In this document: in pieces, positions 3,665-60,557 of the stretch | How positions within the stretch are numbered: the stretch's first letter is position 1 | Layout: each line of letters begins with the position of its first letter | Assembly: GCA_020629155.1 (NCBI GenBank) | Contig: JAHDDW010000006.1 | Coordinates: forward strand, 48,403-112,402 | Direction: 5' to 3' | Origin: Acidimicrobiales bacterium | Lineage (GTDB): Bacteria > Actinomycetota > Acidimicrobiia > Acidimicrobiales > SZUA-35 | DNA length: 64,000 bases | The notes under the pieces: generated by a model | Databases searched by the model: none | The model's input: only the letters and a program-made list of their open reading frames with translations | What the model was told of the DNA's origin: nothing | Translations under genes and position numbers: made by a program

Positions 3665-3816
3665 TCGCCCTAGCAAGTATTGTTTATCTTTGAATACCAA
3701 GTGCCAATACGGTGAGTATTGCTAGGAATCGTCACCGAATGTTGACGGACAGGTATGCCTGTAGAAAACAACGTGGTGTGGCTACAGGCCGACAGAGCTG
3801 GGATAACAAAAACGTT

Positions 3817-12193: not shown

Positions 12194-12241
12194 AACAGTA
12201 GAGACGCATGATTAATAGACATCGCCGCTAGGTTTGAATCT

Positions 12242-18070: not shown

Positions 18071-18309
18071 AAATAGCTGTCAAACAATTTCTTGTAACAT
18101 CAGAACTTTGTTCTCCATAAGTATTTAGGGCTAGGCAGAAACGTGCCGAACTCAGCAGAAACACTAGCAAGATAGATAGTGAATAAGTACGGCGTAAAGA
18201 TTCTCTTAAAATTCCGCTAAGTATCACCTAATTGCGAGCCGACAGAGAAGTAGGAAGAAGATAAACATCTCGCAGCCATAGCAATGTGGCTGGGTTTAAG
18301 GAGAATCAC

Positions 18310-19542
18310 GTGGGTTCGAGACGAACAATAATTCTAATAGGGGCGGTCTTGTTTGGTCTCCTCGCAGCGATTGGCTTATTCAGCTATGTCCGAGGGGTAG
18401 AAGATAGCGTAGCAGAAGGTGCTGAAGCTATCGATGTCCTCGTCGCTAAACAAGATATACCTCAAGGTATCTCAGCTGATGAAGCTCTTAAGAACGGCAT
18501 GATCGAAGTAGATCAGATTCAGTCTGACTTTTCTCCTGCTTCAGCATTAACTGAGATAAGTCAGGTTCAGGAAGGCTTCGCCTCAACGAATATCCCCTCA
18601 GGATCAGTTATTGTCTCTGGGGCGTTTGTTAACGAACGTAAAGCAAACAACGTTAATCGAATCGTGAATAAGCTGGAAAACGAAGACCTAGTAACGGTTA
18701 CGCTTGAGCTTGATAAGCATCAAAATGTTGCAAGTCTTATAGAACCAGGTGACTTTGTGAACGTCCTTTCTATAACAACACCACAGCGTCCGTTCTGGGG
18801 TTCGAAAGAAGAACCAGCGAACGCTGACCTTAGCCAAGAAGCATACAATGAGTTTGTTGCTGTAACAGCGGCAAATAGGTTGCATAGCCATATCCCAGAA
18901 TCTTTGCGAACGACGCTAGGGCTTGGCGAAGATGAAGAGCCAAAGAAATTTCCTGAGTTGACGAAAGAAGAAAAAACACAAGTTATCGCTTGGGTAACAA
19001 CTAACGAATCTTTCTTTATCTCTAACCAGCTTTCGCAACGCAATAGCCGATATCTCTATCAAAAAGCGTTAGTGGTCGCTATTGATCAGAAGATAAATCC
19101 TAGTTTTGGTGCTGAACCTGGTGGAGCCGCAGGCCCAACAACACTTCTTGTAACATTGGGAGTAGCCCCTCGTGATGTGCAGGTTATTCTTAACGCGTCT
19201 CGCCAGAACAATGATGGCATTTACCTGTCGCTTGTTCCTGATGATTATGAGCCAATACCTCTTCCTAACTTGGATCCTTCGCTTCAAATCACTCCAGGTG
19301 AAGATGAATATCGTCTAGTCCCTACAGCTACTGGACGAATTCTTGATGATATTGATGGCCGCAACATTCCAGCGGATGCTAAACAAGCTGGAGGTTCAGC
19401 TTCTGCCGAACCAGAACCAGAGCCTGTAGAAACACCTGAACCGGCGACAGTGCCAGCAGGTGACGCTCCTGCAGAAGAAGGCGCTGGCGCCCCTGGCGAT
19501 TTAGCATTCCAAAGCCCACCCCCAGCTGACGCTATTAACTAA
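18310..19542 (+). CDS. cpaB: Flp pilus assembly protein CpaB/RcpC-like (SAF domain), unusually long
   Basis: The TM anchor is IILIGAVLFGLLAAIGLF. The SAF-like segment is IDVLVAKQDIPQGISADEALKNGMIEV. The C-terminal tail is P/E/A-rich. GTG 18310 lies 6 nt after AAGGAG (18298-18303). Confidence 0.75.
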   Translation: MGSRRTIILIGAVLFGLLAAIGLFSYVRGVEDSVAEGAEAIDVLVAKQDIPQGISADEALKNGMIEVDQIQSDFSPASALTEISQVQEGFASTNIPSGSVIVSGAFVNERKANNVNRIVNKLENEDLVTVTLELDKHQNVASLIEPGDFVNVLSITTPQRPFWGSKEEPANADLSQEAYNEFVAVTAANRLHSHIPESLRTTLGLGEDEEPKKFPELTKEEKTQVIAWVTTNESFFISNQLSQRNSRYLYQKALVVAIDQKINPSFGAEPGGAAGPTTLLVTLGVAPRDVQVILNASRQNNDGIYLSLVPDDYEPIPLPNLDPSLQITPGEDEYRLVPTATGRILDDIDGRNIPADAKQAGGSASAEPEPEPVETPEPATVPAGDAPAEEGAGAPGDLAFQSPPPADAIN

Positions 19543-19550
19543 AGGAACCT

Positions 19551-20846
19551 ATGAGCGAAGAATATGACTTCTCTAATCTTAACTTCGAAAGTTTCTCGGT
19601 AGATGGTTCGACATCAGCAGATGAAGAAACAGCGTTTCGCCTAGAAAACGGAGTTTCAATAGCGGTTGTCGATGCAGACCAAGCAGTTTGTGACTACTTG
19701 TCGTCGATGTTTGAAGGCTCAGTTGATTCAGCTTTTTCTTTATCAGCGATGGAGAACCAGCTTGGGCTTTCTTCTAAAGTTGTGATCATGGGGCCATCGT
19801 GTGCCACAGATTCAGAACTAGCTATAGCGGAACGTTGGGCAAAGCAGCATCCACATGTGGCGACTATTTTGATAACCTCTGAGCTGACAACGCAGCTGCT
19901 GCGTAAAGCGCTTCGTGTCGGGGTCAAAGATGTCTTAGCTGCTCCTGTTGATCAAAGTCAACTTTTTGAGACGATCAACCGTGTTGCTGAAGGTCTTCCT
20001 GATGGACAAGAACTAGCCGAAACTGCGCTGAGTGCACCTGTTCTTGATGAATCAGTTTCTGGTCGTGTTATCAACGTTTTTTCAACTAAAGGCGGTTCTG
20101 GTAAGTCTGTCACAGCAACGAACCTAGGTGTTGCGTTGGCGAAACGTTCGTCGTTGCCGGTAGTGATCATTGACGGGCATCTGCAATTTGGAGATGTTGC
20201 TGTCATGCTAAAATTGCAACCTAAACATAGTGTCGTTGACGCTATCGCACAAATAGACAGCCTTGACGGTCAAATGATCCAACAGTTCATGACAGTTCAT
20301 GAGCCAAGCGGTTTGATGGTGCTTTCAGCACCGCTTGACCCCATGTTTGCTGACCAAGTGCAAGGTGAACAGATGGTCAGGCTCATCGAAGTTGCAAAAT
20401 CATTCGCAGGGCATGTGATTGTTGATCTCCCTGGTTTGTTTAATGAGGTTGTACTTAGCGCTATTGAAGCCAGCGATGATTTGCTTATCGTCGCTGAGCT
20501 CGATATCCCAAACATCAAAAATGTCAAAGTTGGTTTGCAAACTTTAGAAATGCTTAACATTCCTAAAGAACAGATCCATATTGTGATCAACCGAGCTGAT
20601 TCAAAAGTGAAGCTTGATGTTACAGAAGTGGAAAAAGCGCTTGGAGTGAAAGCAATAGCGCATATTCCTTCTGATGTTGTGGTGCCAATATCTGTTAATC
20701 GCAGCACGCCCGTTGTGATATCTGCACCAAAATCTGGTGTGGCAAGAGCCTTTGAAGAGTTAGCGTTGCGCTTTTCTGAACAAGACGCAGTGCTTGCTCC
20801 TAGCAGCAGCGGTGGCAGCAGTCTTAAAAAGTTTTTGGTTAGGTGA
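19551..20846 (+). CDS. tadZ: TadZ/CpaE-like ParA/MinD-family ATPase with an N-terminal receiver-like domain
   Basis: The deviant Walker A is VINVFSTKGGSGKSVTATNLGVALAKR. The N-terminal receiver-like fold ends in ...GVKDVLAAPVDQSQL. Confidence 0.82.
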   Translation: MSEEYDFSNLNFESFSVDGSTSADEETAFRLENGVSIAVVDADQAVCDYLSSMFEGSVDSAFSLSAMENQLGLSSKVVIMGPSCATDSELAIAERWAKQHPHVATILITSELTTQLLRKALRVGVKDVLAAPVDQSQLFETINRVAEGLPDGQELAETALSAPVLDESVSGRVINVFSTKGGSGKSVTATNLGVALAKRSSLPVVIIDGHLQFGDVAVMLKLQPKHSVVDAIAQIDSLDGQMIQQFMTVHEPSGLMVLSAPLDPMFADQVQGEQMVRLIEVAKSFAGHVIVDLPGLFNEVVLSAIEASDDLLIVAELDIPNIKNVKVGLQTLEMLNIPKEQIHIVINRADSKVKLDVTEVEKALGVKAIAHIPSDVVVPISVNRSTPVVISAPKSGVARAFEELALRFSEQDAVLAPSSSGGSSLKKFLVR

Positions 20847-20860
20847 TGACTACCTCGCCC

Positions 20861-20899
20861 CAGTGTTCCGCTGCGATCGGATCGTTTCCATGTAGGTTT
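20861..20899 (+). repeat. copy E of the recurrent intergenic element
   Basis: CAGTGTTCCGCTGCGATCGGATCGTTTCCATGTAGGTTT aligns with copy C (GTATTTCCGCTCCGCTCGGGCCATTCCATGGAGGTTT). It sits in the 124-nt gap between tadZ and tadA. Confidence 0.55.
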
Positions 20900-20970
20900 C
20901 AGCGGATCGCTGTGTATGCAATTTGACAGAAAACAAAAATTTACCAGTTTGATGGATAGAAGGAGCCCCC

Positions 20971-22326
20971 GTGTCGCTGTATCAAAGGTTCAGTAACGAA
21001 AATGCAGATGAGTCTAGCGTAAGCGCTACCAGAGCGGCAGCGCTTGATGAGTTGCGCCACCGTGTACACGAAAGCTTGATAGAAGAGCTGGGCCCTATTC
21101 TTTACGACAAACGGCTTTCAGATGACGAACTGCGCACGAAAGTGCAAGATGCGTTACAGAAAGCTTTGATGCAAGAGAAAGTGCCGATTTCAGCTTCTGA
21201 TAGGGCGCAAATTATTGAAGATGTTTCTGCTGACGTCTTAGGGTATGGCCCGATCGATAAATTGTTGCGTGATGAAGATGTTTCTGAAATCATGTGTAAT
21301 GGTCCTGATCAGATATTTGTAGAGCGCTCAGGAAAAATCTCTTTGGAGGATACGACCTTTGTTGATGCTAGCCATTTGCGTCGTGTTATCGATAAGATTG
21401 TCTCGCAAGTTGGCCGTCGCATTGATGAGTCGTCCCCACTTTGTGACGCGCGTTTGCCCGATGGTTCTCGTGTGAATGCGGTGGTTGAACCGCTTGCTAT
21501 TGGCGGCCCTTTCTTAACAATTCGTAAGTTCGCGACTGAGCCGTTGCGTATCGATGATCTTATTCGCTTCGGCACATTAAGTGTCCATTCGGCTCGTTTC
21601 TTGCAGGCTTGTATTGTGGGCAAGTTAAATGTGATCGTTTCTGGTGGTACAGGTACAGGAAAAACAACCACGCTTAACGTTCTGTCTGGCTTCATTCCTT
21701 CTAATGAACGTATTATCACTGTTGAAGATGCGAAAGAGCTTCAATTGGACCAGGAGCATGTTCTTTCTTTAGAAAGTCGCCCTCCCAACATTGAAGGCAA
21801 AGGCGAGATCGCGATTCGTGATTTGGTGAAAAATACACTGCGTATGCGCCCTGACCGTATTGTGGTAGGGGAGTGTCGTTCGGGTGAAGCGCTTGACATG
21901 TTGCAGGCAATGAATACAGGCCATGATGGCTCGCTCACAACGTTGCACGCAAATAACCCTCGCGATTCGTTAAGCCGTCTTGAGACGTTAGTTATGATGG
22001 CAGGTTTCGATCTGCCTGTGCGTGCTATTCGCGAACAGATCTCGTCGGCTGTTGATCTTATTGTGCAGCTGCAACGTCTTCGTGATGGGACACGCCGTAT
22101 TACTCACGTGACTGAAGTGGATGGGATGGAAGGCGACATTATCACCTTGCAAGATATTTTCTTGTTTGACTTCAAAGCTGGGGCTGATGATTCAGGACGC
22201 TATAAAGGCGATTTGCAGCCAACAGGTGTGCGCCCTAAATTTTCTCAAAAGCTAGCAGATAACGGCATTCGACTCGCTCCAGAAATGTTTGCAGCAGCCT
22301 CTAGACAAGCGCCTGGGAGGAAATAA
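20971..22326 (+). CDS. tadA: TadA/CpaF type II/IV secretion ATPase
   Basis: The Walker A is VSGGTGTGKTTTLN. Other conserved stretches are RPDRIVVGECRSGEALDMLQAMNTGHDGSLTTLHAN. AAGGAG precedes GTG 20971. Confidence 0.92.
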   Translation: MSLYQRFSNENADESSVSATRAAALDELRHRVHESLIEELGPILYDKRLSDDELRTKVQDALQKALMQEKVPISASDRAQIIEDVSADVLGYGPIDKLLRDEDVSEIMCNGPDQIFVERSGKISLEDTTFVDASHLRRVIDKIVSQVGRRIDESSPLCDARLPDGSRVNAVVEPLAIGGPFLTIRKFATEPLRIDDLIRFGTLSVHSARFLQACIVGKLNVIVSGGTGTGKTTTLNVLSGFIPSNERIITVEDAKELQLDQEHVLSLESRPPNIEGKGEIAIRDLVKNTLRMRPDRIVVGECRSGEALDMLQAMNTGHDGSLTTLHANNPRDSLSRLETLVMMAGFDLPVRAIREQISSAVDLIVQLQRLRDGTRRITHVTEVDGMEGDIITLQDIFLFDFKAGADDSGRYKGDLQPTGVRPKFSQKLADNGIRLAPEMFAAASRQAPGRK

Positions 22327-23399
22327 TGACTATGAAATTTGCAGCGTCCTTGGAAGCTATTTCGCTTCATGCTGATATGTCTTCAGCTGAGCTGATGACA
22401 TTAGCGGCAGGCTCAAGCATTTGGGGTAGTAAAATTGTTCTTTATGTCTCGATGTTGCTGGCATTTGTTGGCATAGCAGCTGGTGTGTGGGCGATAGTTT
22501 CTTTGTTTGGTAACCCTGATGGCGAGCTTGATGGTGTGCTTTCAAGCTACGTTAACCCTGACGGCACTGTCGTGACAGAAGAAGACTTACTTGTTCAGTC
22601 ATCTATTGTTAAGAAGGCAATTAGTGCGACGGAAACTTTTACTGAGAAACGCGGTTTCTCTGAAAAAGTTGCGGATTTGCTTGAACGCGCTGATTTGCCT
22701 GTTAAAACAGCAGAGGCATTGTTTTTTGGATTCGCGGGAACGTTTATTGTTTTTGGTTTAGTGTTTGTTGTTTCTAAATCTTTAATAGGAGCCCTTGTTT
22801 TTGGTTTGACAGCTGCTGGGATTATGTTTTTTGTCTTGCAGTTCCTTGCACGTCGAAGGTTGAAAAAGTTTGAGTCTCAGCTTCCAGACACGTTGCAGTT
22901 GCTTGCTGGTACTTTACGCGCAGGTTACTCGCTTCCGCAGGGTATGGATGCTGTCTCTAAAGAGATTGATGATCCTATGGGGCAAGAACTTGCTAGGGCT
23001 ATGTCAGAAGCACAACTTGGTAGAGATTTGGAAGATGCTCTAGCAGGCGTCGCTGACCGTCTTGATAGTCCCGATTTTGCTTGGGCTGTTATGGCTATAG
23101 CGATTCAGCGCGAAGTGGGCGGTAACTTAAATGAGCTGTTGATGAGCGTTGCAGAAACAATGACCCAACGTGACCGCCTGAAGCGTGAGGTGTCGGCGTT
23201 GACTGCTGAAGGCCGTGTTTCAGCCGGCATGCTTTCGATTATGCCGCCTGCACTTGCTATGGTCATTTGGATTATTAACCCTGGCTATTTGGATCCTCTT
23301 TTTACCGAATGGGCAGGAAGGATAGCGTTGGGGGTTGGTATTATGTCCGCTCTCATTGGTTTGGTTTGGATGAAGAAAGTGATAACGATCGATGCCTAG
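22326..23399 (+). CDS. tadB: TadB-like type II secretion system F-family membrane protein
   Basis: The T2SSF-like region is QLPDTLQLLAGTLRAGYSLPQGMDAV with flanking TM helices. Its ATG overlaps the tadA stop (TAATG). Confidence 0.8.
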   Translation: MTMKFAASLEAISLHADMSSAELMTLAAGSSIWGSKIVLYVSMLLAFVGIAAGVWAIVSLFGNPDGELDGVLSSYVNPDGTVVTEEDLLVQSSIVKKAISATETFTEKRGFSEKVADLLERADLPVKTAEALFFGFAGTFIVFGLVFVVSKSLIGALVFGLTAAGIMFFVLQFLARRRLKKFESQLPDTLQLLAGTLRAGYSLPQGMDAVSKEIDDPMGQELARAMSEAQLGRDLEDALAGVADRLDSPDFAWAVMAIAIQREVGGNLNELLMSVAETMTQRDRLKREVSALTAEGRVSAGMLSIMPPALAMVIWIINPGYLDPLFTEWAGRIALGVGIMSALIGLVWMKKVITIDA

Positions 23400-24330
23400 T
23401 TTATTAAACATTATTGCATATCTTTCAGTCGCAGGAGTCGGTGTTTCTCTCGGGTTGGGTTTGTTTTTCCTTCTCTCTACTTTGGAAGATAAAGCAGCTG
23501 CCCGTGATTCGCTACGTCAACTTGGCGAGCTTGAAGTTGAAGACCAACGTGACAAGGACCTGCTTGCTCCAGCTCGTGACCGTTTAATTGCGCCTGCAAT
23601 GGCTGCCTTGGGTAAAGCTGGTAATCGATTTAACCCGCCTGCTTATGTTGAAAGTATTAAGGCTAAACATGTTCAGGCTGGCATAACCGAAGTGGGTGCG
23701 GTCGAACGATTCTTGGCGATCCGTGTCTTAGGCTTTGCACTTATCCCTGTGTGGCTTGCATTTGTATTCTTGTTAAACCCTTTGCAGCTAAGCGGCATGT
23801 TGCAGTTGATTCTTGCAGCTATTGGTGTTGCTGCGTTAGCTGTTGTGCCGAACTCACGGCTTAATCAAAGTGTTAGCCTTCGGCAAAAAGATATTCAGCG
23901 TTCGCTGCCTGATGTTCTTGATTTGCTTGTTATTTGTGTCGAAGCAGGGTTAGGTTTTGAACAAGCGCTCGATCGTGTTATCACAAACGTTCCTGGTGAA
24001 CTTTCTAATGAGTTTGCACGTATGCTTGGTGAAACTGCTGCTGGTGCGGCTCGTGCTGATGCGTTGCGTGGTATGCAAGAACGTATTGATACAGAAGAAG
24101 TTCGTTCGTTTGTTCTTGCTATGATTCAGGCAGATTCTTTTGGTGTGAGTATCGGTCGTGTGCTTCGTGGTCAGGCTGATGAGATGCGAATTAAGCGTCG
24201 TCAGCTTGCGCAAGAGAAGGCGCAGAAGGCTCCTATTAAAATGATGATTCCTATGGTCTTTTGTGTCTTTCCTGCATTGTTTGTGGTGATCTTAGGGCCA
24301 GCGGCTATTAAGATTGCAAACGACTTGTAG
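23392..24330 (+). CDS. tadC: TadC-like type II secretion system F-family membrane protein
   Basis: The T2SSF-like region is SLPDVLDLLVICVEAGLGFEQALDRV. It has multiple TM helices and overlaps the tadB 3' end by 8 nt. Confidence 0.8.
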   Translation: MPSLLNIIAYLSVAGVGVSLGLGLFFLLSTLEDKAAARDSLRQLGELEVEDQRDKDLLAPARDRLIAPAMAALGKAGNRFNPPAYVESIKAKHVQAGITEVGAVERFLAIRVLGFALIPVWLAFVFLLNPLQLSGMLQLILAAIGVAALAVVPNSRLNQSVSLRQKDIQRSLPDVLDLLVICVEAGLGFEQALDRVITNVPGELSNEFARMLGETAAGAARADALRGMQERIDTEEVRSFVLAMIQADSFGVSIGRVLRGQADEMRIKRRQLAQEKAQKAPIKMMIPMVFCVFPALFVVILGPAAIKIANDL

Positions 24331-24401: not shown

Positions 24402-24457
24402 AGAGATGTGTGCTGAAAAGATATCCTGAGTAGCGATGTGCTGCTAGAATCGCCTGT

Positions 24458-26404
24458 GTGAATATTTCTGTTACTCTTCCTGATGGTTCTGCGAGAGAAT
24501 TAGAAGAAGGTTCAACCTTTTCTGATCTTGCCGCTTCGATAGGCTCGCGCCTTGCTAAAGATGCTGTTATCGGTGTCGCTGATGGGCAAGAGGTTGATTT
24601 GACAACACCAGTGCAAGCCGATCAAAATGTTGCTGTTGTGGTCGCCGATAGCGATCGTGGTTTGCATACAATTCGACATTCAACGGCGCATGTTCTGGCG
24701 CAAGCAGTTCTAGAGCTTTGGCCTGATGCAACCTTTGCTATCGGTCCGCCGATCGAAAACGGTTTTTATTATGATTTTGATCTTGGTGGCGATGCATTCA
24801 ACGATGACGATCTTGAAAAGATTGACGCGAAGATGCGTGAAATTATTGCTGCTGATCAGCCATTTATTCGCAGTGAAATGTCTGCAGCTGATGCTAAAGA
24901 AGTTATGGCGCAGCATAAATATAAGCGAGAGATTATCGATCGTGTGTCGGCTCACGAAGACGACAGCGAATTAGCTGGTGAAGCCGATGGCGATGTCATT
25001 AGCTTCTATCGCAATAGCGATCAATTTATTGATATGTGCATGGGTCCGCATGTGCCGTCGACTGCTCGTCTCGGTCATTTCAAGCTTATGAAAGTTGCTG
25101 GTGCATATTGGCGAGGTAGCGAAAAAAATCCGATGCTGCAACGTATTTATGGCACAGCATGGGCAACAAGAAAGCAGCTGAAGCAGCATCTTGTTCGTCT
25201 TGAGGAAGCCGCAAAACGCGATCACCGTAAGTTAGCAAATGAGCTTGATTTGCTGTCTTTCCCGCCTGAACTTGGCGGTGGTTTAGCTGTTTGGCATCCT
25301 AAGGGCGCCATCATTCGAAAGTTGATGGAAGATTATTCTCGTAAGCGTCACGAAGAGGGCGGCTATGAGTTTACGTATACGCCGCATTTGGCAAACGCTA
25401 AACTGTTTGAAACATCTGGTCACCTCGATTTTTATGAAGACGGCATGTATCCGCCGATGGAGATGGATAACGGCACTTACTATCCTAAACCAATGAACTG
25501 CCCAATGCATGTGCTTGTCTATAAGGCGCAGCAACGTTCCTATCGCGAGTTGCCGCTGCGTTTGTTTGAGTTGGGTACGGTGTATCGCTATGAGCGTGCA
25601 GGCACATTGCATGGGCTTATGCGCATCCGAGGGTTCACACAAGATGATTCCCACATTTTTGTGACGCAAGAAGAGTTGGCCAAAGAGTTGGCTAGTTTGT
25701 TAGCGTTCGTTCTTTCGGTCTTGCGGGCGTTTGGGTTTGAAGAGTTTCAAGCGAAACTTTCAACAAAACCTGAAGGTAAGGCTGTCGGTGGCGATGAAAT
25801 TTGGGATCATGCCACGCAGGCGTTGCGTGCAGCACTTGAAGAAGCTCAAATAGACTATGTTGTTGACGAGGGTGGCGGCGCTTTTTATGGCCCTAAGATC
25901 GATGTTGATGTGCGCGATGCGATTGGTCGTTCATGGCAACTTTCAACAATTCAGGCCGATTTTAATTTGCCTGAACGGTTCGATTTGGAATATGTCGCTG
26001 CTGATGGCACTCGTAAACAGCCAGTAATGGTGCATCGTGCGTTGTTCGGTTCTGTTGAGCGGTTCTTCGGTGTTCTGACTGAGCATTTCGCTGGGAACTT
26101 CCCGTTGTGGCTTGCTCCTGTGCAGGTTGAGGTGCTTCCAGTGGCCGAAGCTCACAACGAATATGCACAGAAAGTAGAACAACTCTTGACAGATAAAGGC
26201 TTGCGTGTGCAAACAACGTTGGCGACCATGCCGTTAGGTAAACGGATCCGCAATGCTAAGAAACAGAAACTGCCGTATGTGCTTGTTGTCGGTGATGATG
26301 ATGTGGCGCAGCAAAGCGTGGGTGTTAACCCTCGTGGCGGCGAAGTGGAACGTGGTGTGCCGCTAGATACGTTTGCTCTTCAGCTAACTGAAGAGTTAGC
26401 TTAG
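24458..26404 (+). CDS. thrS: threonine--tRNA ligase
   Basis: 648 aa. It has a TGS-like N-terminus, the editing-domain motif HSTAHVLAQAV, and class II core motifs YRELPLRLFELGTVYRYE and GFTQDDSHIF. Confidence 0.95.
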   Translation: MNISVTLPDGSARELEEGSTFSDLAASIGSRLAKDAVIGVADGQEVDLTTPVQADQNVAVVVADSDRGLHTIRHSTAHVLAQAVLELWPDATFAIGPPIENGFYYDFDLGGDAFNDDDLEKIDAKMREIIAADQPFIRSEMSAADAKEVMAQHKYKREIIDRVSAHEDDSELAGEADGDVISFYRNSDQFIDMCMGPHVPSTARLGHFKLMKVAGAYWRGSEKNPMLQRIYGTAWATRKQLKQHLVRLEEAAKRDHRKLANELDLLSFPPELGGGLAVWHPKGAIIRKLMEDYSRKRHEEGGYEFTYTPHLANAKLFETSGHLDFYEDGMYPPMEMDNGTYYPKPMNCPMHVLVYKAQQRSYRELPLRLFELGTVYRYERAGTLHGLMRIRGFTQDDSHIFVTQEELAKELASLLAFVLSVLRAFGFEEFQAKLSTKPEGKAVGGDEIWDHATQALRAALEEAQIDYVVDEGGGAFYGPKIDVDVRDAIGRSWQLSTIQADFNLPERFDLEYVAADGTRKQPVMVHRALFGSVERFFGVLTEHFAGNFPLWLAPVQVEVLPVAEAHNEYAQKVEQLLTDKGLRVQTTLATMPLGKRIRNAKKQKLPYVLVVGDDDVAQQSVGVNPRGGEVERGVPLDTFALQLTEELA

Positions 26405-36271: not shown

Positions 36272-36318
36272 AATAGTCTATTTTCTTAAATGTCACACCT
36301 TTCATCTAGTGTGTCTGC

Positions 36319-37239
36319 ATGAAAGAAAAATCAAATTCACATGAGAGTTCTATCCACAACCCTCATGATTCAGTAGTCAAAAAGTTCTTTACTGCGCGAA
36401 CTATGAAAGAATTTCTAGAAGAATATTTCCCTTACGGATTATGTAAGGAAATCAATCTTGATTCTTTGACTTTATGCGACACTGAGTTCATCAGTTCTGA
36501 ACTTGTACGTTCTTCTGCGGATCTTCTATTTAAGGCCGATTGTAGCCATGAAAGATGGACCTATGTTTACGTCTTGTTTGAACACAAAAGTCAACCCGAA
36601 CGTGAAGTCGCATTGCAGTTGTTGCGATACATTGTTAACATCTGGAGCAAAGGTAAACCTGAACTAGTGCTGCCTATTGTATTTTATCATGGCAAAGAGA
36701 GCTGGAATATAGAGACAAGCTTTCAGGCATCAGTGTTTCCTGGAATGCCAGAGATTCTTCGTTCATGCACACCAGAATTTGACTATTGGCTTTTTGATGT
36801 CCAGTCTTTGGGCGATTTCGATGTTGAAGTAGTTTCTGAATTGCAGGCACTACTCCTGGTTCTAAAAGCGTTAAGTAGCCAGAACCCTTACCTTTATCTG
36901 GAAAGACACAGCAATATGGTGTTAAAATGGATCATAGGGAATTCAATAAACAAAGAAAAACTTGAATCTCTGATGAGATACCTAGCAGATCAAACGAATG
37001 AGTTGGATGATTATAAGCAATTTGAGACTCAACTACTCGAACAAGGAGCAAAAATGCCAAGCGTATTAGAACAACTTACACAACAAGGCCTTGAGCAGGG
37101 TCTTGAGCAGGGTCTTGAACAAGGGCTAGAGCAAGGGGTCGAACAAGTAGCAAAAAAGATGCTTGGCAAAGGCTATAGCATAGCCGAAATCGAGGAAGTC
37201 ACAGGCCTTAAACAAACAAGAATTACAGAGCTTAAGTAA
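36319..37239 (+). CDS. Rpn-family recombination-promoting nuclease / putative transposase (YhgA-like PD-(D/E)xK)
   Basis: HDSVVKKFF...ADLLFKADCSHERWTYVYVLFEHKSQPEREVALQLLRYIVNIW matches the Rpn/YhgA-like core. The C-terminus carries (GLEQ)n repeats. The locus looks A/T-richer than its neighbours by eye. Confidence 0.75.
   Translation: MKEKSNSHESSIHNPHDSVVKKFFTARTMKEFLEEYFPYGLCKEINLDSLTLCDTEFISSELVRSSADLLFKADCSHERWTYVYVLFEHKSQPEREVALQLLRYIVNIWSKGKPELVLPIVFYHGKESWNIETSFQASVFPGMPEILRSCTPEFDYWLFDVQSLGDFDVEVVSELQALLLVLKALSSQNPYLYLERHSNMVLKWIIGNSINKEKLESLMRYLADQTNELDDYKQFETQLLEQGAKMPSVLEQLTQQGLEQGLEQGLEQGLEQGVEQVAKKMLGKGYSIAEIEEVTGLKQTRITELK
37087..37146 (+). repeat. five tandem 12-bp units encoding (GLEQ)x4-GVEQ
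   Basis: The units are ggccttgagcag, ggtcttgagcag, ggtcttgaacaa, gggctagagcaa and ggggtcgaacaa, all inside the Rpn-family CDS. Confidence 0.9.
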
Positions 37240-48051: not shown

Positions 48052-48107
48052 ACGTGCAAGCCTAGCCGCTGCGAGTCGTATTTACCTCATAACGCATAGT
48101 AAAAAAA

Positions 48108-48139
48108 TGCGCAAAAACAAAAAATAGTGTTTTTGCGCA
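48108..48139. promoter_or_regulatory. perfect 11-bp inverted repeat TGCGCAAAAAC-N10-GTTTTTGCGCA in a divergent promoter region
   Basis: The arms are at 48108-48118 and 48129-48139. The repeat lies between the SRPBCC gene start (48051, -) and the ATPase gene start (48180, +). Confidence 0.45.
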
Positions 48140-48179: not shown

Positions 48180-49616
48180 ATGGTGAAACGTATGGATCTA
48201 TTTGTTGGTCGTGAAAAAGAGCTGAGCCAACTAGAAGAACTACAAAATAAAAAAATTGCAAGCCTTGTCGTTATCAAAGGGCGCAGACGTGTAGGCAAAA
48301 GTCGATTATTGGAACACTTTACGCAAGATAAGAAAGTTCTTTGGTTCGCTGGTTTAGCACCTCATCCTACTGTTTCTGCAGCACAACAGCGGATCGAATT
48401 TCAGACGCAGCTTGCAAGGCAAACCACTGCATCTGATGTAGCTACAGAAAACTGGAGTCTCTTGTTTGAAGAACTAGCTAGACAGGTTCAACCAGGAATG
48501 ACTATAGTGCTCGACGAAATAACTTGGATGAGCCATAACGATCCGACTTTTTTGCCAAAACTAAAAAACTTGTGGGATTTACACTTGTCAAAAGTCGAGG
48601 GACTGCTTGTTATCCTATGTGGCTCTGTTTCTTCGTGGATCGAGAAAAACATTGTTAGCAGCACCGCTTTTTTCGGTCGAATTTCAAAGAAGATAACGGT
48701 TGACGAACTCAGTTTACAAGAAAGCAACTTGTTATTAGAAAAGATTGGTTTTAAACGCTCCCCAATGGAAAAATTTCTTCTCCTATCGCTTGTCGGTGGT
48801 ATTCCTTGGTACATAGAGCAAATTAATCCTGCGCTTTCTGCACCTGCGAATATTCAGCGTCTTTGTTTCGACCCAGATGGGCTACTTGTAGATGAGCATA
48901 GGCATATTTTTCATGATCTTTTCGGTAAACGTAGCGATATTTATGGCAAAATCACAGAATTTTTGGCGTCAGGAGCGTCTGCATATAAAGAAATTGCAGC
49001 GGGGGTAGGGTATGGCAATGGTGGCACCTTAAGTCAGTATCTCGATGAGTTGGTAGCTTCTGGCTATATCAGTCGAGATGCTCATTGGTCCTTTAAAACA
49101 GGAAAGTTTTCGGCTAAGGCTGCCTATAGATTATCAGATAACTATTTGCGGTTCTACTATAAGTATATAAAGCCAAGAATTGGGCAGATTTCGCAAGGGC
49201 TATTTGTTAACGAAGACGTGACTGCGCTGCCTGGATGGAATGCAGTGATGGGTCTACAGTTCGAAAATTTAGTTTTGAGGAATAAAAGAACTATCACAAC
49301 TATTCTTGGTCTTCAATCGCGCGATATCGTTTCTGCTAACCAGTACTTTCAAAGAAAAACGAAATCCCGGGAAGGCACGCAAATAGATCTTCTGGTGCAA
49401 ACACAGCTTAATACTCTGTTCATATGTGAGGTAAAGTTTTCGAAACGGGAAATTGGTAGTTCTGTCATTGAAGAAACTAAAGAAAAGGTAGCAAGGCTTG
49501 AGAAGCCAAAAGGCTTCACCTGCGTACCTGTATTGATTCATGCTAGCGGCGTCACCGAAGCGGTCGATGATAGCGGTTATTTCTATAAAATGATTAATCT
49601 CATCGATGAGTTATAA
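48180..49616 (+). CDS. AAA-type ATPase (archaeal-ATPase/DUF234-like orphan ATP-binding protein)
   Basis: FVGREKELSQLEEL...LVVIKGRRRVGKSRLL is the Walker A context. IVLDEITWM is Walker B-like. The long C-terminal region ends ...FICEVKFSKREIG, which looks like a PD-(D/E)xK-like/DUF234 tail. The locus looks A/T-rich by eye. Confidence 0.65.
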   Translation: MVKRMDLFVGREKELSQLEELQNKKIASLVVIKGRRRVGKSRLLEHFTQDKKVLWFAGLAPHPTVSAAQQRIEFQTQLARQTTASDVATENWSLLFEELARQVQPGMTIVLDEITWMSHNDPTFLPKLKNLWDLHLSKVEGLLVILCGSVSSWIEKNIVSSTAFFGRISKKITVDELSLQESNLLLEKIGFKRSPMEKFLLLSLVGGIPWYIEQINPALSAPANIQRLCFDPDGLLVDEHRHIFHDLFGKRSDIYGKITEFLASGASAYKEIAAGVGYGNGGTLSQYLDELVASGYISRDAHWSFKTGKFSAKAAYRLSDNYLRFYYKYIKPRIGQISQGLFVNEDVTALPGWNAVMGLQFENLVLRNKRTITTILGLQSRDIVSANQYFQRKTKSREGTQIDLLVQTQLNTLFICEVKFSKREIGSSVIEETKEKVARLEKPKGFTCVPVLIHASGVTEAVDDSGYFYKMINLIDEL

Positions 49617-49619
49617 ATC

Positions 49620-49644
49620 AGTCGTTATGCATGTCATAGGTGGC
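49620..49644 (+). repeat. direct repeat DR1 (AGTCGTTATGCATGTCATAGGTGGC)
   Basis: 24 of 25 nt are identical to 50455-50479. It lies 3 nt after the ATPase stop codon. Confidence 0.85.
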
Positions 49645-49710
49645 TGATCGCACCTTCAGAGAATCTGAATGTAAACTGATTAGGACGGGTATGAAACGTA
49701 AAGGTGGGTA

Positions 49711-50439
49711 ATGGCAGAGTCACGTTTGCAGGATTTAGATTCACATTACAAAATTATGGGTGCTTTAGGTGGAAATAGAATCGATAACACACAAGCTGGA
49801 CAGCTGCTTATAGAGAATGTAAAGAAAAATTGCGAACCATATGCATGCGTCTTTGAACTGCTACGCCCTAACTTGTTTGAAACGTTACGTCAAGAGGACA
49901 AAGAATTTCTTGCCTCATTTATACTTGAAACGACAAGAACTGGAATGCCAGCCGATCGCTCTTGGGATTTTAGCAACGAGTTTGTTTGGAAACTTTACAG
50001 TAAAATTTTGACGCATAAGCAAGTTGCCCAAACGCTTTCTGAGTCGATCCGAAGAAAAAATAGCCCCAACATTTTACGCAATGTTAACTATTTTGAGAGT
50101 CGAAAGTTACTGGAAAGTCTTGATGCAACAGAACGCGAAATTTTAGCGGCCAGTATTCTCAATAAAGTGGAATCTGGGACGATAACGTTAGGGCCTGAAA
50201 CTCTACATGTTTTTATCAAAAAAGGTCTGTTGCTGCAAGGCGATGTTGTTGATTCGTTTGCCAAAGCTGCTCACGCTGGCTACTTCGTTGAAGAAAACCA
50301 GCATGTTGTAAATAGCCTCCAGTTTCGCCGTCCGTTCTTGCCTATCGATCGTAATTTTGGTCTTCCTTCGCAATGGCGTGGCAGTCAGAACGGTGGAGTC
50401 GAGTCGTCAGCGCCGAAGCCTAATTCAGCTGGCCTTTAG
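49711..50439 (+). CDS. hypothetical protein (orphan, bracketed by the 25-nt direct repeats)
   Basis: 242 aa with no recognisable motif. AAAGGTGGG precedes the ATG. The composition looks A/T-rich. Confidence 0.5.
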   Translation: MAESRLQDLDSHYKIMGALGGNRIDNTQAGQLLIENVKKNCEPYACVFELLRPNLFETLRQEDKEFLASFILETTRTGMPADRSWDFSNEFVWKLYSKILTHKQVAQTLSESIRRKNSPNILRNVNYFESRKLLESLDATEREILAASILNKVESGTITLGPETLHVFIKKGLLLQGDVVDSFAKAAHAGYFVEENQHVVNSLQFRRPFLPIDRNFGLPSQWRGSQNGGVESSAPKPNSAGL

Positions 50440-50454
50440 AGCAAAATTTGGGTT

Positions 50455-50479
50455 AGTCGTTATGAATGTCATAGGTGGC
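50455..50479 (+). repeat. direct repeat DR2 (AGTCGTTATGAATGTCATAGGTGGC)
   Basis: This is the second copy of DR1. Its last 5 nt include the pcrA GTG start at 50475. Confidence 0.85.
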
Positions 50480-52742
50480 GGCTAGGTTTGATAGAGTGAC
50501 TCAGCTAATCGATAATTTGAATCCCCAACAGCTTGAAGCTGTAACACACAAGGGTGGTCCGCTTCTTGTAGTTGCTGGCGCTGGTTCGGGCAAAACCCGT
50601 GTCTTGACGAGACGGATAGCGTGGCTGATCGAAAACGGTGCGTCGCCATATTCTATTTTAGCGATCACGTTCACCAATAAAGCCGCTGCCGAGATGCGTC
50701 ATCGTGTTGAGGAGCTTCTTGGCCCGCAACAAACCAACGGCATGTGGATTGCTACGTTTCACAGTGCTTGTGTTCGTATTCTGCGAAGCGAAGCTGAAGC
50801 GTTGGGGTATCCCTCATCGTTCACTATTTATGATCAAGCTGATGCTGTCCGGCTGACAAGTTATGTGATCAGAGACATTGGCCTGGACCCAAAACGTTTC
50901 GCTCCACGTCAGGTGCATAGCGCTATCAGTGCCGCTAAAAACGAAGGCATGTCGCCCGATCAGTTTAAAGATGCGGCTTCGTCTCCGCTCCAAAAAAAAT
51001 CTGCTGAAGTGTATGAGATTTATCAACAACGCATGCGAGAAGCTGGGGCGATGGACTTCGACGACTTGTTGCTAAACACAGCGCAGCTTTTTCGTACTCG
51101 ACCAGAAGTATTGGCTCGGTACCGTCACCGTTTTCAACATGTCCTTGTTGATGAATATCAAGATACAAACTCTGTTCAAAATGAGCTGGTTGTTACCTTA
51201 GGCGCAGAACATAGAAATGTCACTGTGGTCGGCGACAGCGATCAGTCTATCTATCGTTTCCGTGGCGCTGATTTGCGTAATATTATGCGTTTCGAAGACG
51301 AGTTTCCAGACACAAAAACGGTTCTACTCGAACAAAATTATCGTTCGACGCAAACAATTCTTGATGCTGCTAACGCCGTTATTTCTAACAACTTTGGTCG
51401 TGCGCCGAAGAAGTTGTGGACTGATGAAGGAAGCGGCGAAAAGATTATGCGATTCTACGCTGATGACGAAATAGGCGAGGCGCAGTTTGTTGCCGGCGAA
51501 CTTGCTCGTTTCCATGACGTGGGGGACTATCACTGGAATCAGATGGCGGTTTTTTATCGAACAAACGCACAGTCACGCACGATTGAAGAATATTTTATGC
51601 GTGTTGGCATTCCCTATAAAGTTGTCGGCGGCACCCGTTTCTATGATCGACGTGAAATAAAAGACGCCTTGGCGTACCTAAAGGTTATGGTCAACCCTGT
51701 TGATGAAGTCGCACTGAAACGAGTCATTAATACCCCAAAACGGGGTGTTGGTGATGCGTCTATTATCAAGCTGGAAACCTATGCACGTGCCAATAATATG
51801 ACGTTGCATACAGCGTTGGCGAAACCAGGCGACGCTGGGGTAAAAGGTAAAGCATTAAAAGGCATCGCACAGTTTCTGGCGTTGCATGAATCGTTTGCTG
51901 CCGAATCTGACGGTAATCCAGCTAAATCATTAGAGATGGTGTTGCGAGATTCTGGCTATATTGTCGAGCTTGAAGACGAGCGTTCGCTAGAGGCAGAAAC
52001 CCGTTTAGAGAACTTGCATGAGCTGATAGGCGTTGCGAGAGAGTTTGAAACGATTGATGAGTTTCTAGAAAACGTTAGTTTGGTTTCTGATCTCGATGGC
52101 TATGAAGAGTCCGAATCGGCAGTCACGTTAATGACTGTTCATGCTTCTAAAGGTTTGGAATTTCCCGTTGTTTTCATTATGGGGCTTGAAGACGGCATTT
52201 TCCCTCATTCTCGTTCCTTAACCGAGCCAGTCGAAATGGAAGAAGAACGCCGCCTTGCATATGTTGCTATTACACGGGCGCGAGAAAAACTCTATATGAC
52301 TAATGCGTGGTCGCGTATGCTTTTTGGGCAAAGTCAATATAACCCTCCGAGTCGATTTTTAACTGAGGTGCCAGCTTCGCTGCAAACTGAAGCAAAAGGA
52401 AGTCGAAGCACCACATCTAAAGGGCGGCGTTCTTCCGATTTCAGCGATTCGAGCTATGGCAGCAGCTTCACTACAAAAAGTGGTACGAAAAAGAAGTCGG
52501 TGTTTGGATCGTCACTGTATGGCGGCAAGAACGCAAAAATGGAAGCAGCATTAGCTGCTGCCAAAAAAACTGAAATAAAAGACAGTATCGACCTAAAAGT
52601 CGGTGATGACGTGGTTCATAAAGAATGGGGCGACGGTGTCGTGTTAGGGATGCGCAGCGAAAGCGAAGCAGTCATAAACTTTCCCACTGTCGGCGAAAAA
52701 GTTTTGCTTCTAGAATACGCCCCGCTAGAGAAATTAGGCTAA
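50475..52742 (+). CDS. pcrA: ATP-dependent DNA helicase PcrA/UvrD1
   Basis: LNPQQLEAVTHKGGPLLVVAGAGSGKTRVLTRRIAWL (motifs Q/I), VLVDEYQDTN (II), YRSTQTIL, and VHASKGLEFPVVFIMG...RRLAYVAITRAREKL (V/VI). Confidence 0.92.
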   Translation: MAARFDRVTQLIDNLNPQQLEAVTHKGGPLLVVAGAGSGKTRVLTRRIAWLIENGASPYSILAITFTNKAAAEMRHRVEELLGPQQTNGMWIATFHSACVRILRSEAEALGYPSSFTIYDQADAVRLTSYVIRDIGLDPKRFAPRQVHSAISAAKNEGMSPDQFKDAASSPLQKKSAEVYEIYQQRMREAGAMDFDDLLLNTAQLFRTRPEVLARYRHRFQHVLVDEYQDTNSVQNELVVTLGAEHRNVTVVGDSDQSIYRFRGADLRNIMRFEDEFPDTKTVLLEQNYRSTQTILDAANAVISNNFGRAPKKLWTDEGSGEKIMRFYADDEIGEAQFVAGELARFHDVGDYHWNQMAVFYRTNAQSRTIEEYFMRVGIPYKVVGGTRFYDRREIKDALAYLKVMVNPVDEVALKRVINTPKRGVGDASIIKLETYARANNMTLHTALAKPGDAGVKGKALKGIAQFLALHESFAAESDGNPAKSLEMVLRDSGYIVELEDERSLEAETRLENLHELIGVAREFETIDEFLENVSLVSDLDGYEESESAVTLMTVHASKGLEFPVVFIMGLEDGIFPHSRSLTEPVEMEEERRLAYVAITRAREKLYMTNAWSRMLFGQSQYNPPSRFLTEVPASLQTEAKGSRSTTSKGRRSSDFSDSSYGSSFTTKSGTKKKSVFGSSLYGGKNAKMEAALAAAKKTEIKDSIDLKVGDDVVHKEWGDGVVLGMRSESEAVINFPTVGEKVLLLEYAPLEKLG

Positions 52743-58560: not shown

Positions 58561-60462
58561 TCAACGTTTGGTCGTAACTATATCGACCAGTTCTTGGCCA
58601 TAAAAGTTGGCTTTTGTTTTATTCATGTTCGCTAGAGCAGCCAGAGCTTGTAGGCTCTCTGGTCGTTCTGTGGCAAGTTGATCGATTAAAGCGTCAGAGA
58701 CAACAGCTTTGGGCATAATAATCGCTGCTCGCGCTTTGCGCTTTCGCCAAGCGAGTAGTTCCTGTTTGATTTCTTCAGTTATGGCGTTTGTTTGCTCTTC
58801 AGATTTGAGATGCGAAGCTGGAATGTCTTGCTTAGGGTTAGTGTTTGTTGGTTCTGAAGTTAGCTGAGTCCGTGAGGCTGCGATACCTTGACGCCAATTT
58901 GACGCGCCTGTGGCAGAAGTAGTGGTCATCGATGCGATAACACGGCGTAGTACGCTTATTTTCGGCGAAGCGGCACGTTCTTTTGTGCGCTCGCCGACAT
59001 GGCGATTACGGCACCATGAAAGAGACAAGGTACGTTCCGCACGTGTCACTGCAACATAAAGCAGTCGGTATTCTTCGTCGATTTGCTCTTTCGTTTTTGC
59101 ATGCCATAGGGGAGTGAGGCCTTCTTCGAGACCGCAGACATACACAGTGGGCCACTCTAACCCTTTTGCAGCGTGAAAGGTCAACAGCTCGACGCTGTTT
59201 TGCTGCTCGTCTACGTCGCGGGCCGAAACAATAGCAGCTTCTTTCATTTGCGTCTCAAACAGTGATTCGTCGGCGTTGGTTGCAGGTTTTTGAGCCGCCA
59301 AACGTTCATTCGAATATCGTATAACAGTCGGCACGCCTGCTTTCCCTAGTATTGTTTCTAGCAAAACAAGTTGCTCATTTGTGCGGGCTAGAACAGCCTG
59401 GTTTTTCCATGTTTTGTCGTTAGTAAAGACAGCTTTGACTCTCTCACAGATTCCTTCAGCCTCTTTGTAATTATCTTGATAGGCAGTTATTTCTGGAATT
59501 GGGCCGTCAGAGCAGTGCGCTTTCATCACGGAGCCAGACTGCACCTGCGATTGTTTGTCAGCCGCTTTCGATTCAGGCAGGCAAGCCGACGCAAGTTGTA
59601 AGATTTGCGGCGACGAACGATAATTCTCGTCGAGATAAATTACATGGGCATCTGGCTGATTTGCAATAAAGTGTTCGAGCAGTGTTGGATCTGCCCCATT
59701 CCAGCTATAAATCGCCTGGTTCGGATCACCGACAAGAAACAAGTCGTTGCGTTTGTTTGTCCACTGTTGTAAAAGTTCGAATTGTAAAGGGTTTATATCT
59801 TGAAATTCGTCGACATAAAAATGGCGGTGACGCCAACGCACTGCCGCAGCATAAGTTTCGTCTTGCTGTAAGTCTCGAATAGCTAAATAGAGCAAGTCGT
59901 CAAAGTCAACAACTCGTTTTTTTTGTTTCGCTTGTTGATAGGCAATCATCGCGTCAGCGACACGTTCATAATCAATCGAAACAGCTCGCCTATGTGTCTG
60001 GGCTGCGTCGTTGTAATGCTGCGGAGCGATCATTTTTGATCTTGCCCAGTTTATTTCGGCGAGAAGCGCCTTCGCAAGAGGCCGCTGTTGTTTGGGCAGC
60101 AGATTCTGCAGAAAACGGGTCTGATTATCAAGGATCGTCGGTTCGGCTTGGTTTTTCTCTTCCCAGCGTTGACGCAACTGCCGCAATGCAATGCTATGGA
60201 AGGTACCCGTCACTATTTTGTCTCGCACACCCAGAGACGTTATTTTTTGGGCAAGCGACTGCGATGCTTTACGGGTGAACGTTAAGGCCATCACACGGCT
60301 AGGGTCTGTTTCGCCGACAGCAATTCGTCTAGCGATGCGGCGAGTCAGCACCCGAGTCTTGCCAGAACCAGCACCAGCAATCACAACAAGCGGGTTAGCG
60401 TCGGTGCAGATGGCGTCATATTGTGCCGCATTGACGTTGCCAAGAAGCTGGTCAGTATCCAT
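58561..60462 (-). CDS. UvrD-family helicase with a C-terminal HRDC-like domain (UvrD2-like)
   Basis: PLVVIAGAGSGKTRVLTRRIARR (I), FYVDEFQDINPLQ (II), ENYRSSPQIL, and FHAAKGLEWPTVYVCG...YRLLYVAVTRAERTL (V/VI). The C-terminus ELLAWRKRKARAAIIMPKAVVSDALIDQLA is HRDC-like. Confidence 0.85.
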   Translation of the reverse strand: MDTDQLLGNVNAAQYDAICTDANPLVVIAGAGSGKTRVLTRRIARRIAVGETDPSRVMALTFTRKASQSLAQKITSLGVRDKIVTGTFHSIALRQLRQRWEEKNQAEPTILDNQTRFLQNLLPKQQRPLAKALLAEINWARSKMIAPQHYNDAAQTHRRAVSIDYERVADAMIAYQQAKQKKRVVDFDDLLYLAIRDLQQDETYAAAVRWRHRHFYVDEFQDINPLQFELLQQWTNKRNDLFLVGDPNQAIYSWNGADPTLLEHFIANQPDAHVIYLDENYRSSPQILQLASACLPESKAADKQSQVQSGSVMKAHCSDGPIPEITAYQDNYKEAEGICERVKAVFTNDKTWKNQAVLARTNEQLVLLETILGKAGVPTVIRYSNERLAAQKPATNADESLFETQMKEAAIVSARDVDEQQNSVELLTFHAAKGLEWPTVYVCGLEEGLTPLWHAKTKEQIDEEYRLLYVAVTRAERTLSLSWCRNRHVGERTKERAASPKISVLRRVIASMTTTSATGASNWRQGIAASRTQLTSEPTNTNPKQDIPASHLKSEEQTNAITEEIKQELLAWRKRKARAAIIMPKAVVSDALIDQLATERPESLQALAALANMNKTKANFYGQELVDIVTTKR

Positions 60463-60557
60463 ATGTCTGAGCCTACCAGCCGCTTGTAACTGTCGTCTTT
60501 AACTTGAGGCTATCTCTGTTTATTGCTTCTCCGCTGAATCGCTTTACCCAAAACCCG

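Follow-up and report, generated by a model that had tools for sequence, protein, structure and literature searches.

A 25-nt direct repeat around an orphan gene upstream of pcrA in an Acidimicrobiales genome: a possible target duplication of half a promoter

The region upstream of pcrA, a UvrD/PcrA helicase gene of an Acidimicrobiales bacterium (contig JAHDDW010000006.1), raises the question of how two almost identical 25-nt sequences came to bracket a segment whose only sizeable open reading frame (ORF), the orphan ORF242, lies between a candidate defence ATPase gene and the helicase gene. We analyzed this locus within a stretch of 64,000 nt, called the window hereafter. The first-pass annotation had reported that the two 25-mers match at 24 of 25 positions. 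This proved correct, the sole mismatch being a C/A difference at position 11, and the similarity is beyond what chance yields in shuffled sequence: with up to three mismatches allowed, the two copies are the sole matches on both strands of the 64-kb window, and zero are expected from 100 shuffles. The search for further copies that had been proposed found no degenerate ones, since the 37 other matches obtained in the 64 kb at up to 10 mismatches compare with 21-42 in shuffled sequences. The edges of the repeat are sharp, the 120-nt flanks of both copies aligning no better than shuffled sequence. Our preferred explanation, to which we give about an even chance of being right, is that a promoterless 810-bp fragment carrying ORF242 inserted once, by an illegitimate (not site-specific) event, between the ATPase gene and the pcrA promoter and duplicated its target, which gave rise to the repeat.

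The contig derives from a metagenome and has one supporting sample, so that a chance similarity or an assembly artefact has to be weighed first. We find this barely credible. The shuffles gave no match, our own analytic estimate of the chance expectation for such a pair is approximately 1e-4, and the longest exact stretch common to both copies is 14 nt, which we judged too short to collapse assembly graphs. In addition, the independent Logan assembly of run SRR14415275 includes a contig matching both copies and the whole region at 100% identity, which makes an assembly artefact unlikely. This contig is also the sole other one that carries ORF242 (100% identical).

What the repeated sequence represents depends on where pcrA begins. 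Gene callers choose the GTG at 50475, and the first-pass annotation placed this start codon inside the second repeat and held that the first repeat therefore carries a duplicated pcrA 5' end. Neither statement could be upheld. The sequence 3' of copy 2 reads GGC-TAGGTT-TGATAGA-GTG, with the hexamer TAGGTT 7 nt before the GTG at 50496. Besides pcrA, 14 of the 53 window genes have a TAnnnT hexamer (mostly TAGnnT) 6-8 nt before their first start codon, against approximately 3 expected. These include polA (12242), a divergent SRPBCC gene (48051) and a second UvrD-like helicase gene (60462), and the sequence GC[GC]GC-TAGG[TC]T-TG is common to pcrA, polA and the SRPBCC gene. As read from this pattern leaderless transcription is common in the window, which supports 50496 as both the start codon and the transcription start of pcrA. 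The hexamer thus points to GTG 50496 as the most likely start of the gene, in place of GTG 50475, and with this correction the GTG at 50475 and the repeat around it would be promoter DNA (-41 to -17). A duplication extending past the 25-mer into the 5' end of pcrA was considered and rejected, given that the flanks behave like shuffled sequence. Examples of the leaderless layout are found at 12221-12244 (polA), 24437-24460, 48052-48064 (-) and 60463-60475 (-).

The promoter defined in this way has a second recognizable part. Promoters of the DNA-damage regulator PafBC (RecA-NDp) follow the consensus tGTCgg-N10-tA(N3)T, in which PafB contacts the GTC at -23 to -28 and a -35 element is dispensable (PMC8635444, PMC6789036). 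Copy 2 together with the 9 nt 3' of it matches tGTCnn-N10-tA(N3)T: like PafBC promoters, it has a GTC triplet at -28 to -26, a spacer of exactly N10 and a -10 hexamer of the form TAnnnT, and it drives a DNA-repair helicase gene. It differs from them in having AT after the GTC instead of gg. The arrangement is also found in some Ilumatobacteraceae relatives, where TGTCAC-N10-TAGAGT lies just 5' of the pcrA ATG at three loci (L030, L031 and L035) and AGTCAC-N10-TAGAGT at a fourth (L011); other relatives have the near variants TGTGAC, TGCGAC or CGCCAC at the GTC position. A loose version of the motif, TGTCR-N(10-12)-TAnnnT, is not enriched in the window (13 instances vs 13.4 expected) and only its exact placement before start codons, as at pcrA and at the gene at 36319, is informative. 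Such an exact register occurs in 2 of approximately 15 leaderless promoters, against approximately 0.02-0.2 expected by our own post hoc estimate. The second perfect instance (TGTCAC-N10-TAGTGT, 6 nt, ATG) precedes the gene at 36319, which encodes a YhgA/Rpn-family nuclease. The motif, its spacing and its conservation in some relatives form the basis on which we propose a PafBC-type promoter for pcrA. If this reading is right, it adds evidence that promoters with a PafBC-type "-26 element" and leaderless transcription reach a deep-branching lineage of the Acidimicrobiia.

Two further genes of the window touch on this motif. The nuclease gene at 36319-37239 (+), whose promoter begins at 36291, encodes a "Transposase_31" recombination-promoting nuclease (PF04754, E=3e-40) and has the lowest GC content of the window (0.397); its candidate promoter suggests that the nuclease may be DNA-damage-inducible. 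The second UvrD-like helicase (58561-60462, -) has a C-terminal HRDC-like region that makes it UvrD2-like, and its leaderless layout (TAGGCT, 7 nt, ATG) is accompanied by AGTTAC where the PafBC GTC element would be.

Copy 1 repeats the upstream half of this promoter. It holds TGTCAT at 49632-49637, and at the place expected for the -10 hexamer it has TCGCAC (49648-49653) and so fails the PafBC motif; TAGnnT is absent throughout 49645-49710, between copy 1 and ORF242. Because TGTCAT is kept but the -10 hexamer is missing, copy 1 looks like a non-functional duplicate, or scar, of the upstream half of the pcrA promoter, and as a half promoter only it also differs from the known PafBC promoters. 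The GTG of copy 1 does open a short ORF, as had been stated, at coordinates that were off by one (49641-49712 instead of those in Table 1), and this mini-ORF is probably a by-product and not a gene. Folding of the junctions revealed no hairpin or other RNA structure better than in shuffled sequences (z = +0.14 and -0.11), and no known RNA family was recognized at the repeats.

These features also bear on the possibility that the duplication is regulatory in nature. The 25-mer would then be a cis module, composed of the PafBC -26 element and the palindrome TATGA-N3-TCATA, that was copied in front of ORF242, or that selection or gene conversion keeps near-identical there, placing ORF242 and pcrA under one common DNA-binding factor. 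What is repeated does coincide with a functional part of the pcrA promoter, its upstream half, copy 2 does hold this 5+5 palindrome, and the second PafBC-type leaderless promoter at 36291 suggests that the motif is used in this genome. Moreover, the identity of 24 out of 25 positions could reflect constraint despite the host-like codon usage of ORF242 described below, and these two properties together leave room for selection on copy 1. We nevertheless regard a regulatory origin as unlikely, because copy 1 has no -10 hexamer at the N10 spacing, its single mismatch weakens the palindrome, and no further full or partial copy is present in the 64 kb. In addition, the sites of one regulon are normally degenerate, rather than 96% identical over 25 nt with razor-sharp edges.

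We then turn to the DNA between the repeats. The first-pass annotation had described an 810-bp segment with ORF242 as its only content, and indeed no other sizeable ORF lies between the copies. The codon log-likelihood of ORF242 is +0.20 in frame and -0.42 and -0.83 in the other frames (window genes, 0.12-0.45), which indicates that it is a genuine gene with host-like usage. The impression that it is A/T-richer is borne out mildly by its GC content (0.428, the sixth lowest of 51 window genes with a range of 0.39-0.50) but not by its third-position GC content (GC3, 0.38) or its codon usage, both typical of the window. No homologue was found by a word-indexed search of 5.8e9 proteins or by a full phmmer search against 1.84e9 representatives. 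In agreement with the earlier statement that the protein has no recognizable domain, ORF242 matched no family in Pfam, PADLOC or PHROGs; PDB sequences and tblastn against plasmids and phages were equally negative. A single-sequence AlphaFold (AF2) model is all alpha-helical and of low confidence (predicted local distance difference test score (pLDDT) 51, predicted template modelling score (pTM) 0.39), with a disordered C-terminus of 40 residues, and the sequence contains a weak internal repeat, LxExL...E[FI]LA..IL (p ~0.01). The structure-based search that had been suggested for this protein was carried out with Foldseek against PDB and BFVD and returned nothing significant, no match having E < 0.04 and only generic helical repeats being recovered. 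Apart from two noise matches, ORF242 showed no similarity at E<=10 to pcrA, to any window gene or to the neighbours of the ATPase homologues, and we rejected both its descent from a gene of the window and its presence beside those homologues. The lineage is isolated, the closest PcrA among 5.8 billion proteins being 65% identical with best matches in Acidimicrobiia, and at least five other window genes likewise have no family match, so that the orphan status of ORF242 is unremarkable in itself.

Neither a promoter nor a terminator could be recognized in the 810-bp segment, and terminator-like sites are lacking both between the ATPase gene and ORF242 and between ORF242 and pcrA. With a ribosome-binding site of its own but neither a promoter nor a terminator, ORF242 would most likely be transcribed by read-through from the ATPase promoter.

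Short direct repeats around a discrete unit are an obvious reason to look for a mobile element, and the earlier proposal was indeed one of a site-specific or duplication-mediated insertion. It had also been noted that the island contains no integrase or transposase gene, which stands: no transposase was found in the 810-bp segment and no integrase or serine recombinase among the annotated genes from 36 to 63 kb, where a single gene of mobility type, that of the YhgA/Rpn-like nuclease 12 kb away, was seen. Terminal inverted repeats are absent at 49645 and 50454, no attC-like structure is present and the 15-nt trailer has no inverted repeat. Insertion sequences, miniature inverted-repeat transposable elements and transposons are defined by terminal inverted repeats and a duplication of 2-14 bp, and here the duplication measures 25 bp. 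Of the features expected of an att-flanked island, the near-identical direct repeats at both ends were found, and a recombinase and a recurring att core were not.

The site-specific alternative holds that the 25-mers are the attL and attR cores of an integrase-less cassette, similar to a cis-mobilizable element (CIME) or a satellite, that was mobilized in trans by a recombinase whose gene lies elsewhere in the genome; its circle junction would read ...AAATTTGGGTT-25-mer-TGATCGCACC in a circle of 835 bp. Near-identical direct repeats of approximately 25 bp around a discrete unit are the classical footprint of a tyrosine recombinase, and our inspection for recombinases covered part of the genome. 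ORF242 also resembles the genes of CIMEs and integron cassettes in being promoterless, with its own ribosome-binding site, between near-identical repeats, and in adjoining a second acquired gene in an array-like order (gene-repeat-gene-repeat). In contrast to these elements the locus has no integrase and no attC imperfect palindrome or GTTRRRY core, its repeat consists of target (promoter) DNA and not of element DNA, and the site is not known in further copies. Besides the missing recombinase, there is no tRNA gene or other usual att target nearby (tRNA and Rfam searches of the window gave nothing but two tRNA genes near 2.4 kb, approximately 47 kb away) and there are no inverted arm-type repeats or structure. 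The core of the 25-mer has no match in 2.9 million viral contigs and the 25-mer none in the 62 other loci that we fetched. Its two matches in the metagenome collection lie inside unrelated coding sequence with different flanks, and this number is approximately that predicted by chance for 18 specified bases. Finally, the limits of the repeat, at the ATPase junction and at -17, are better explained by what needed to be preserved than by a recombinase core. All this makes site-specific recombination a distinctly improbable origin, and of the earlier proposal we retain the target-duplicating insertion, which is the most economical explanation.

The events proposed under an illegitimate, target-duplicating insertion can be described in two steps. 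First, the ATPase cassette would have entered the interval that separates the promoters of the divergent SRPBCC gene and of pcrA, leaving 3 nt between its 3' end and the upstream limit of the pcrA promoter. The order before the second step would then have been the ATPase stop codon, ATC, the 25-mer and GGC-TAGGTT-7 nt-GTG of a leaderless pcrA, and the empty site can be modelled as ...GAGTTATAAATC-AGTCGTTATGMATGTCATAGGTGGC-GGCTAGGTTTGATAGAGTG. The promoterless 810-bp fragment with ORF242 would subsequently have inserted at approximately -17 of the pcrA promoter, duplicating the full 25 nt from the ATPase junction to the insertion point. The right copy, still joined to the -10 hexamer, would keep a complete PafBC-type promoter for pcrA, and the left copy would remain as a scar. 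We assume pcrA to be an important gene, and probably only a duplicating event survived, because an insertion without duplication would part the -26 element from the -10 hexamer. Long target duplications of this kind may thus mark the insertions that survive selection, not the action of a dedicated enzyme. Candidate routes are (i) fill-in of a staggered break followed by end joining, (ii) template switching and (iii) a Campbell-type single crossover on approximately 25 bp of homology. The window encodes an ATP-dependent DNA ligase (9833-11278) as well as the Rpn-type nuclease (36319-37239), whose bearing on the route is circumstantial.

Small variable segments that are flanked by short direct repeats and arise by illegitimate recombination are a known and common class in bacteria (Touzain et al. 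2010, PMC2884548). The segment studied here is like them in its size (sub-kb to kb), in lacking mobile-element hallmarks, in having direct repeats that are mostly <30 bp in that class, in lying between conserved genes and in that such repeats make a segment prone to loss by slippage. It differs in being known from one genome and in that a functional half-promoter can be recognized in the duplicated sequence.

Several observations weigh against this explanation. The codon usage and GC3 of ORF242 are host-like, as expected of a native gene or one of long residence more than of a recent foreign arrival, whereas the copies, identical at 24/25 positions, point to an event of recent date or to selection acting on copy 1. 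A target duplication of 25 bp exceeds the length known from classical transposition. The genes pafB and pafC (WYL genes) were not found among the annotated genes of the window, and the search for further copies of the repeat covered 64 kb of the genome. Furthermore, public data contain no empty-site allele or related strain. The comparison set consisted of the top 120 PcrA proteins and 41 fetched pcrA loci (GTDB species representatives, mostly Ilumatobacteraceae), none of these loci having conserved synteny with the window, and an exact-protein look-up of the flanking SRPBCC and redoxin proteins found no strain variant on record. If the explanation nevertheless holds, the locus shows, as a clean case from nature, how new genes can enter a compact genome beside an important promoter, the insertion surviving by duplication of the activator-binding half of the promoter and leaving one working copy and one scar. 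It is also an event seen once, without replication, in one genome derived from a metagenome; the gene concerned is of unknown function, and this kind of genome scar is fairly ordinary.

Of note, many Ilumatobacteraceae pcrA genes of the comparison set carry an in-frame insertion of approximately 0.5-1 kb after about residue 250, giving products of 980-1115 aa. The insertion matches Pfam PF14890 and PF13403 (L025, L027-L030, L032-L034, L039 and L040; proteins P0004, P0071, P0086 and others) and is probably an intein, which is missing from the window pcrA.

The acquisition of the ATPase gene, which precedes that of ORF242 in our scheme, had been connected to the repeat by a third, weaker match, AGTCGTATTTACCTCATAACG (48074-48094), taken as a hint of serial cassette insertion at one site. 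A gap is needed to align this sequence, and its gapped score of 8 is reached by 305 of 6396 windows (4.8%), a chance-level result. The match falls between -17 and -30 of the SRPBCC gene's own leaderless promoter. Two successive acquisitions, of the ATPase gene and then of ORF242, are plausible, but the third copy is no evidence for them.

The ATPase itself (ATPase_2, PF01637) is a full-length match to the PADLOC family PDC-S27, with residues 16-471 aligning to positions 1-456 of 474 of hidden Markov model PDLC04984 (E=5.3e-83). PDC-S27 is a single-gene defence candidate that is experimentally unvalidated (PMC12988326). The C-terminus has weak matches to DUF234, DUF4143 and restriction endonucleases (PD-(D/E)xK), all below cut-off. 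The best homologues, 52-60% identical, are found in Gammaproteobacteria/Legionellales, Chlamydiae and Alphaproteobacteria. Since its best relatives belong to other phyla, the gene appears clearly to have been acquired horizontally. At all eight distinct homologue loci examined, a solitary ATPase gene is wedged among housekeeping genes, for instance between the genes for HMG-CoA reductase and synthase, within a met ABC-transporter operon or beside dot/icm genes, and the window ATPase shares this mode of solitary insertion. None of the eight loci revealed a conserved downstream partner. The suggestion that the ATPase and ORF242 might co-occur elsewhere found no support, ORF242 having no homologue and the neighbours at the eight loci being unrelated; ORF242 thus is no part of a PDC-S27 system and has no counterpart at the other PDC-S27 loci. 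Every homologue examined has, directly 5' of its start, two to three tandem 32-nt palindromic boxes (T[ATG]CGCA-N20-TGCG[TCA]A) with a period of approximately 53 nt, of which one intact box is kept in the window (Table 1). The boxes form a conserved cis element of this ATPase family, probably an operator or promoter, that is retained with the gene in different phyla.

Long flanking target duplications were seen at 2 of the 8 homologue loci, L048 and L045, and no flanking repeats at the other six; none that is significant surrounds the window's own ATPase gene. The right-hand repeat of L048 begins directly after the ATPase stop codon, and the homologous ATPase insertions likewise end at or near the stop codon. 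L045 has in addition an extra copy of the ATPase 3' end with 31 nt placed 5' of the gene (3756-3838 / 5395-5477), which hints at a tandem or circular intermediate. In both cases the duplication restores an interrupted element, the 3' end of a gene, so that the selection proposed for the pcrA promoter fits these loci as well.

These loci give rise to one more explanation, that the duplication upstream of pcrA belongs to the ATPase element. In it the PDC-S27-type ATPase, with its nuclease-like C-terminus, would be an autonomous, self-inserting single-gene cassette, marked by the tandem 32-nt boxes, that enters between housekeeping genes with variable long target duplications (25, 43 and 163 nt so far) and recruits promoterless genes at its 3' junction, where ORF242 would have been captured by the same machinery. 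The duplications of 43 and 163 nt, the start of the L048 right repeat directly after the ATPase stop, which resembles the position of copy 1 here, the possible intermediate at L045 and the resemblance of the C-terminus to PD-(D/E)xK nucleases or DUF234 would all fit such a cassette. We consider it highly doubtful all the same, as the repeat in the window brackets ORF242 and not the ATPase, the candidate left copy is at chance level, six of eight homologue loci have no flanking repeat, the nuclease assignment is below threshold and there is no conserved downstream cargo. Were it true, the pair of 25-mers would have been left by an insertion mechanism that has not been described so far, and a link between the defence operon and the DNA-damage regulator PafBC could run through the left copy. 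The side observations, on the conserved boxes and occasional long duplications of this widespread ATPase family and on the leaderless PafBC-type promoters, may outweigh the main finding in worth.

Table 1 Positions of the repeat copies, the bracketed segment and the neighbouring features. Coordinates are those of the window except for the homologue loci (L numbers), which are numbered separately.
Feature	Position	Strand	Remarks
Direct repeat copy 1, AGTCGTTATGCATGTCATAGGTGGC	49620..49644	+	starts 3 nt past ATPase stop codon
Direct repeat copy 2, AGTCGTTATGAATGTCATAGGTGGC	50455..50479	+	-41 to -17 of the pcrA promoter (+1 = 50496)
Bracketed segment, putative insert, 810 bp	49645..50454	+	66-nt leader with Shine-Dalgarno sequence, ORF242, 15-nt trailer
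ORF242, gene for a 242-aa protein	49711..50439	+	only sizeable ORF of the segment
Shine-Dalgarno-like sequence AAAGGTGGG	49700..49708	+	directly 5' of the ORF242 ATG; read from the sequence
Mini-ORF, 23 codons (VADRTFRESECKLIRTGMKRKGG, stop)	49640..49711	+	opened by the GTG of copy 1; stop overlaps the ORF242 ATG (TAATG)
PafBC-type bipartite motif	50467..50488	+	TGTCAT, N10 (AGGTGGCGGC), TAGGTT; -10 hexamer at 50483-50488
pcrA (UvrD/PcrA helicase)	50496..52742	+	likely GTG start at 50496 (MTQLIDNLNPQQLEAV), putative leaderless transcript
ATPase_2 (PF01637) protein gene	48180..49616	+	PADLOC PDC-S27 member
32-nt palindromic box TGCGCAAAAACA-N8-TGTTTTTGCGCA	48108..48139	+	5' of the ATPase gene; one intact box kept in the window
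Leaderless promoter of the divergent SRPBCC gene	48052..48085	-	TAGGCT at 48064-48059, 7 nt, ATG 48051
Palindromic boxes in homologues	L045 3907-3990; L046 2146-2230; L048 3910-3995; L051 3402-3487; L053 3361-3475; L054 5' of 3501		
L048 duplication, 43 nt	3871-3913 / 5474-5516		with the final codons of the HMG-CoA reductase gene that lies upstream
L045 duplication, 163 nt	3333-3495 / 5503-5665		3' end of a dotB-like gene

Two of the homologue loci deserve mention in their own right. At L048 a second, different solitary ATPase gene (AAA_14 and DUF4143, 6902-8107) lies between the genes for HMG-CoA synthase and a GHMP kinase, so that single ATPase genes are wedged twice into this mevalonate operon. 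In L055-L064, which represent one population, the ATPase lies inside a metN-metI ... metQ operon (approximately 4441-6990 in L055) together with two DUF4949 genes, a HigB/HigA toxin-antitoxin pair and a 141-aa orphan; this region is a small defence or toxin-antitoxin islet that splits the transporter operon.

Elsewhere in the window, the ATP-dependent DNA ligase at 9833-11278 (+) has weak, below-cutoff similarity to the ligase domains of LigD proteins of non-homologous end joining. Neither of the two genes 5' of it (8386-8994 and 9126-9833) matches any family, and a Ku gene was not recognized. A three-gene run at 20971-24330 was considered as a candidate for PafBC and rejected because these are Tad-pilus genes. 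They form part of a Tad/Flp pilus cluster at 18286-24330 (+) that encodes an RcpC/CpaB-like protein, a ParA-like ATPase, a T2SSE ATPase and two T2SSF proteins.

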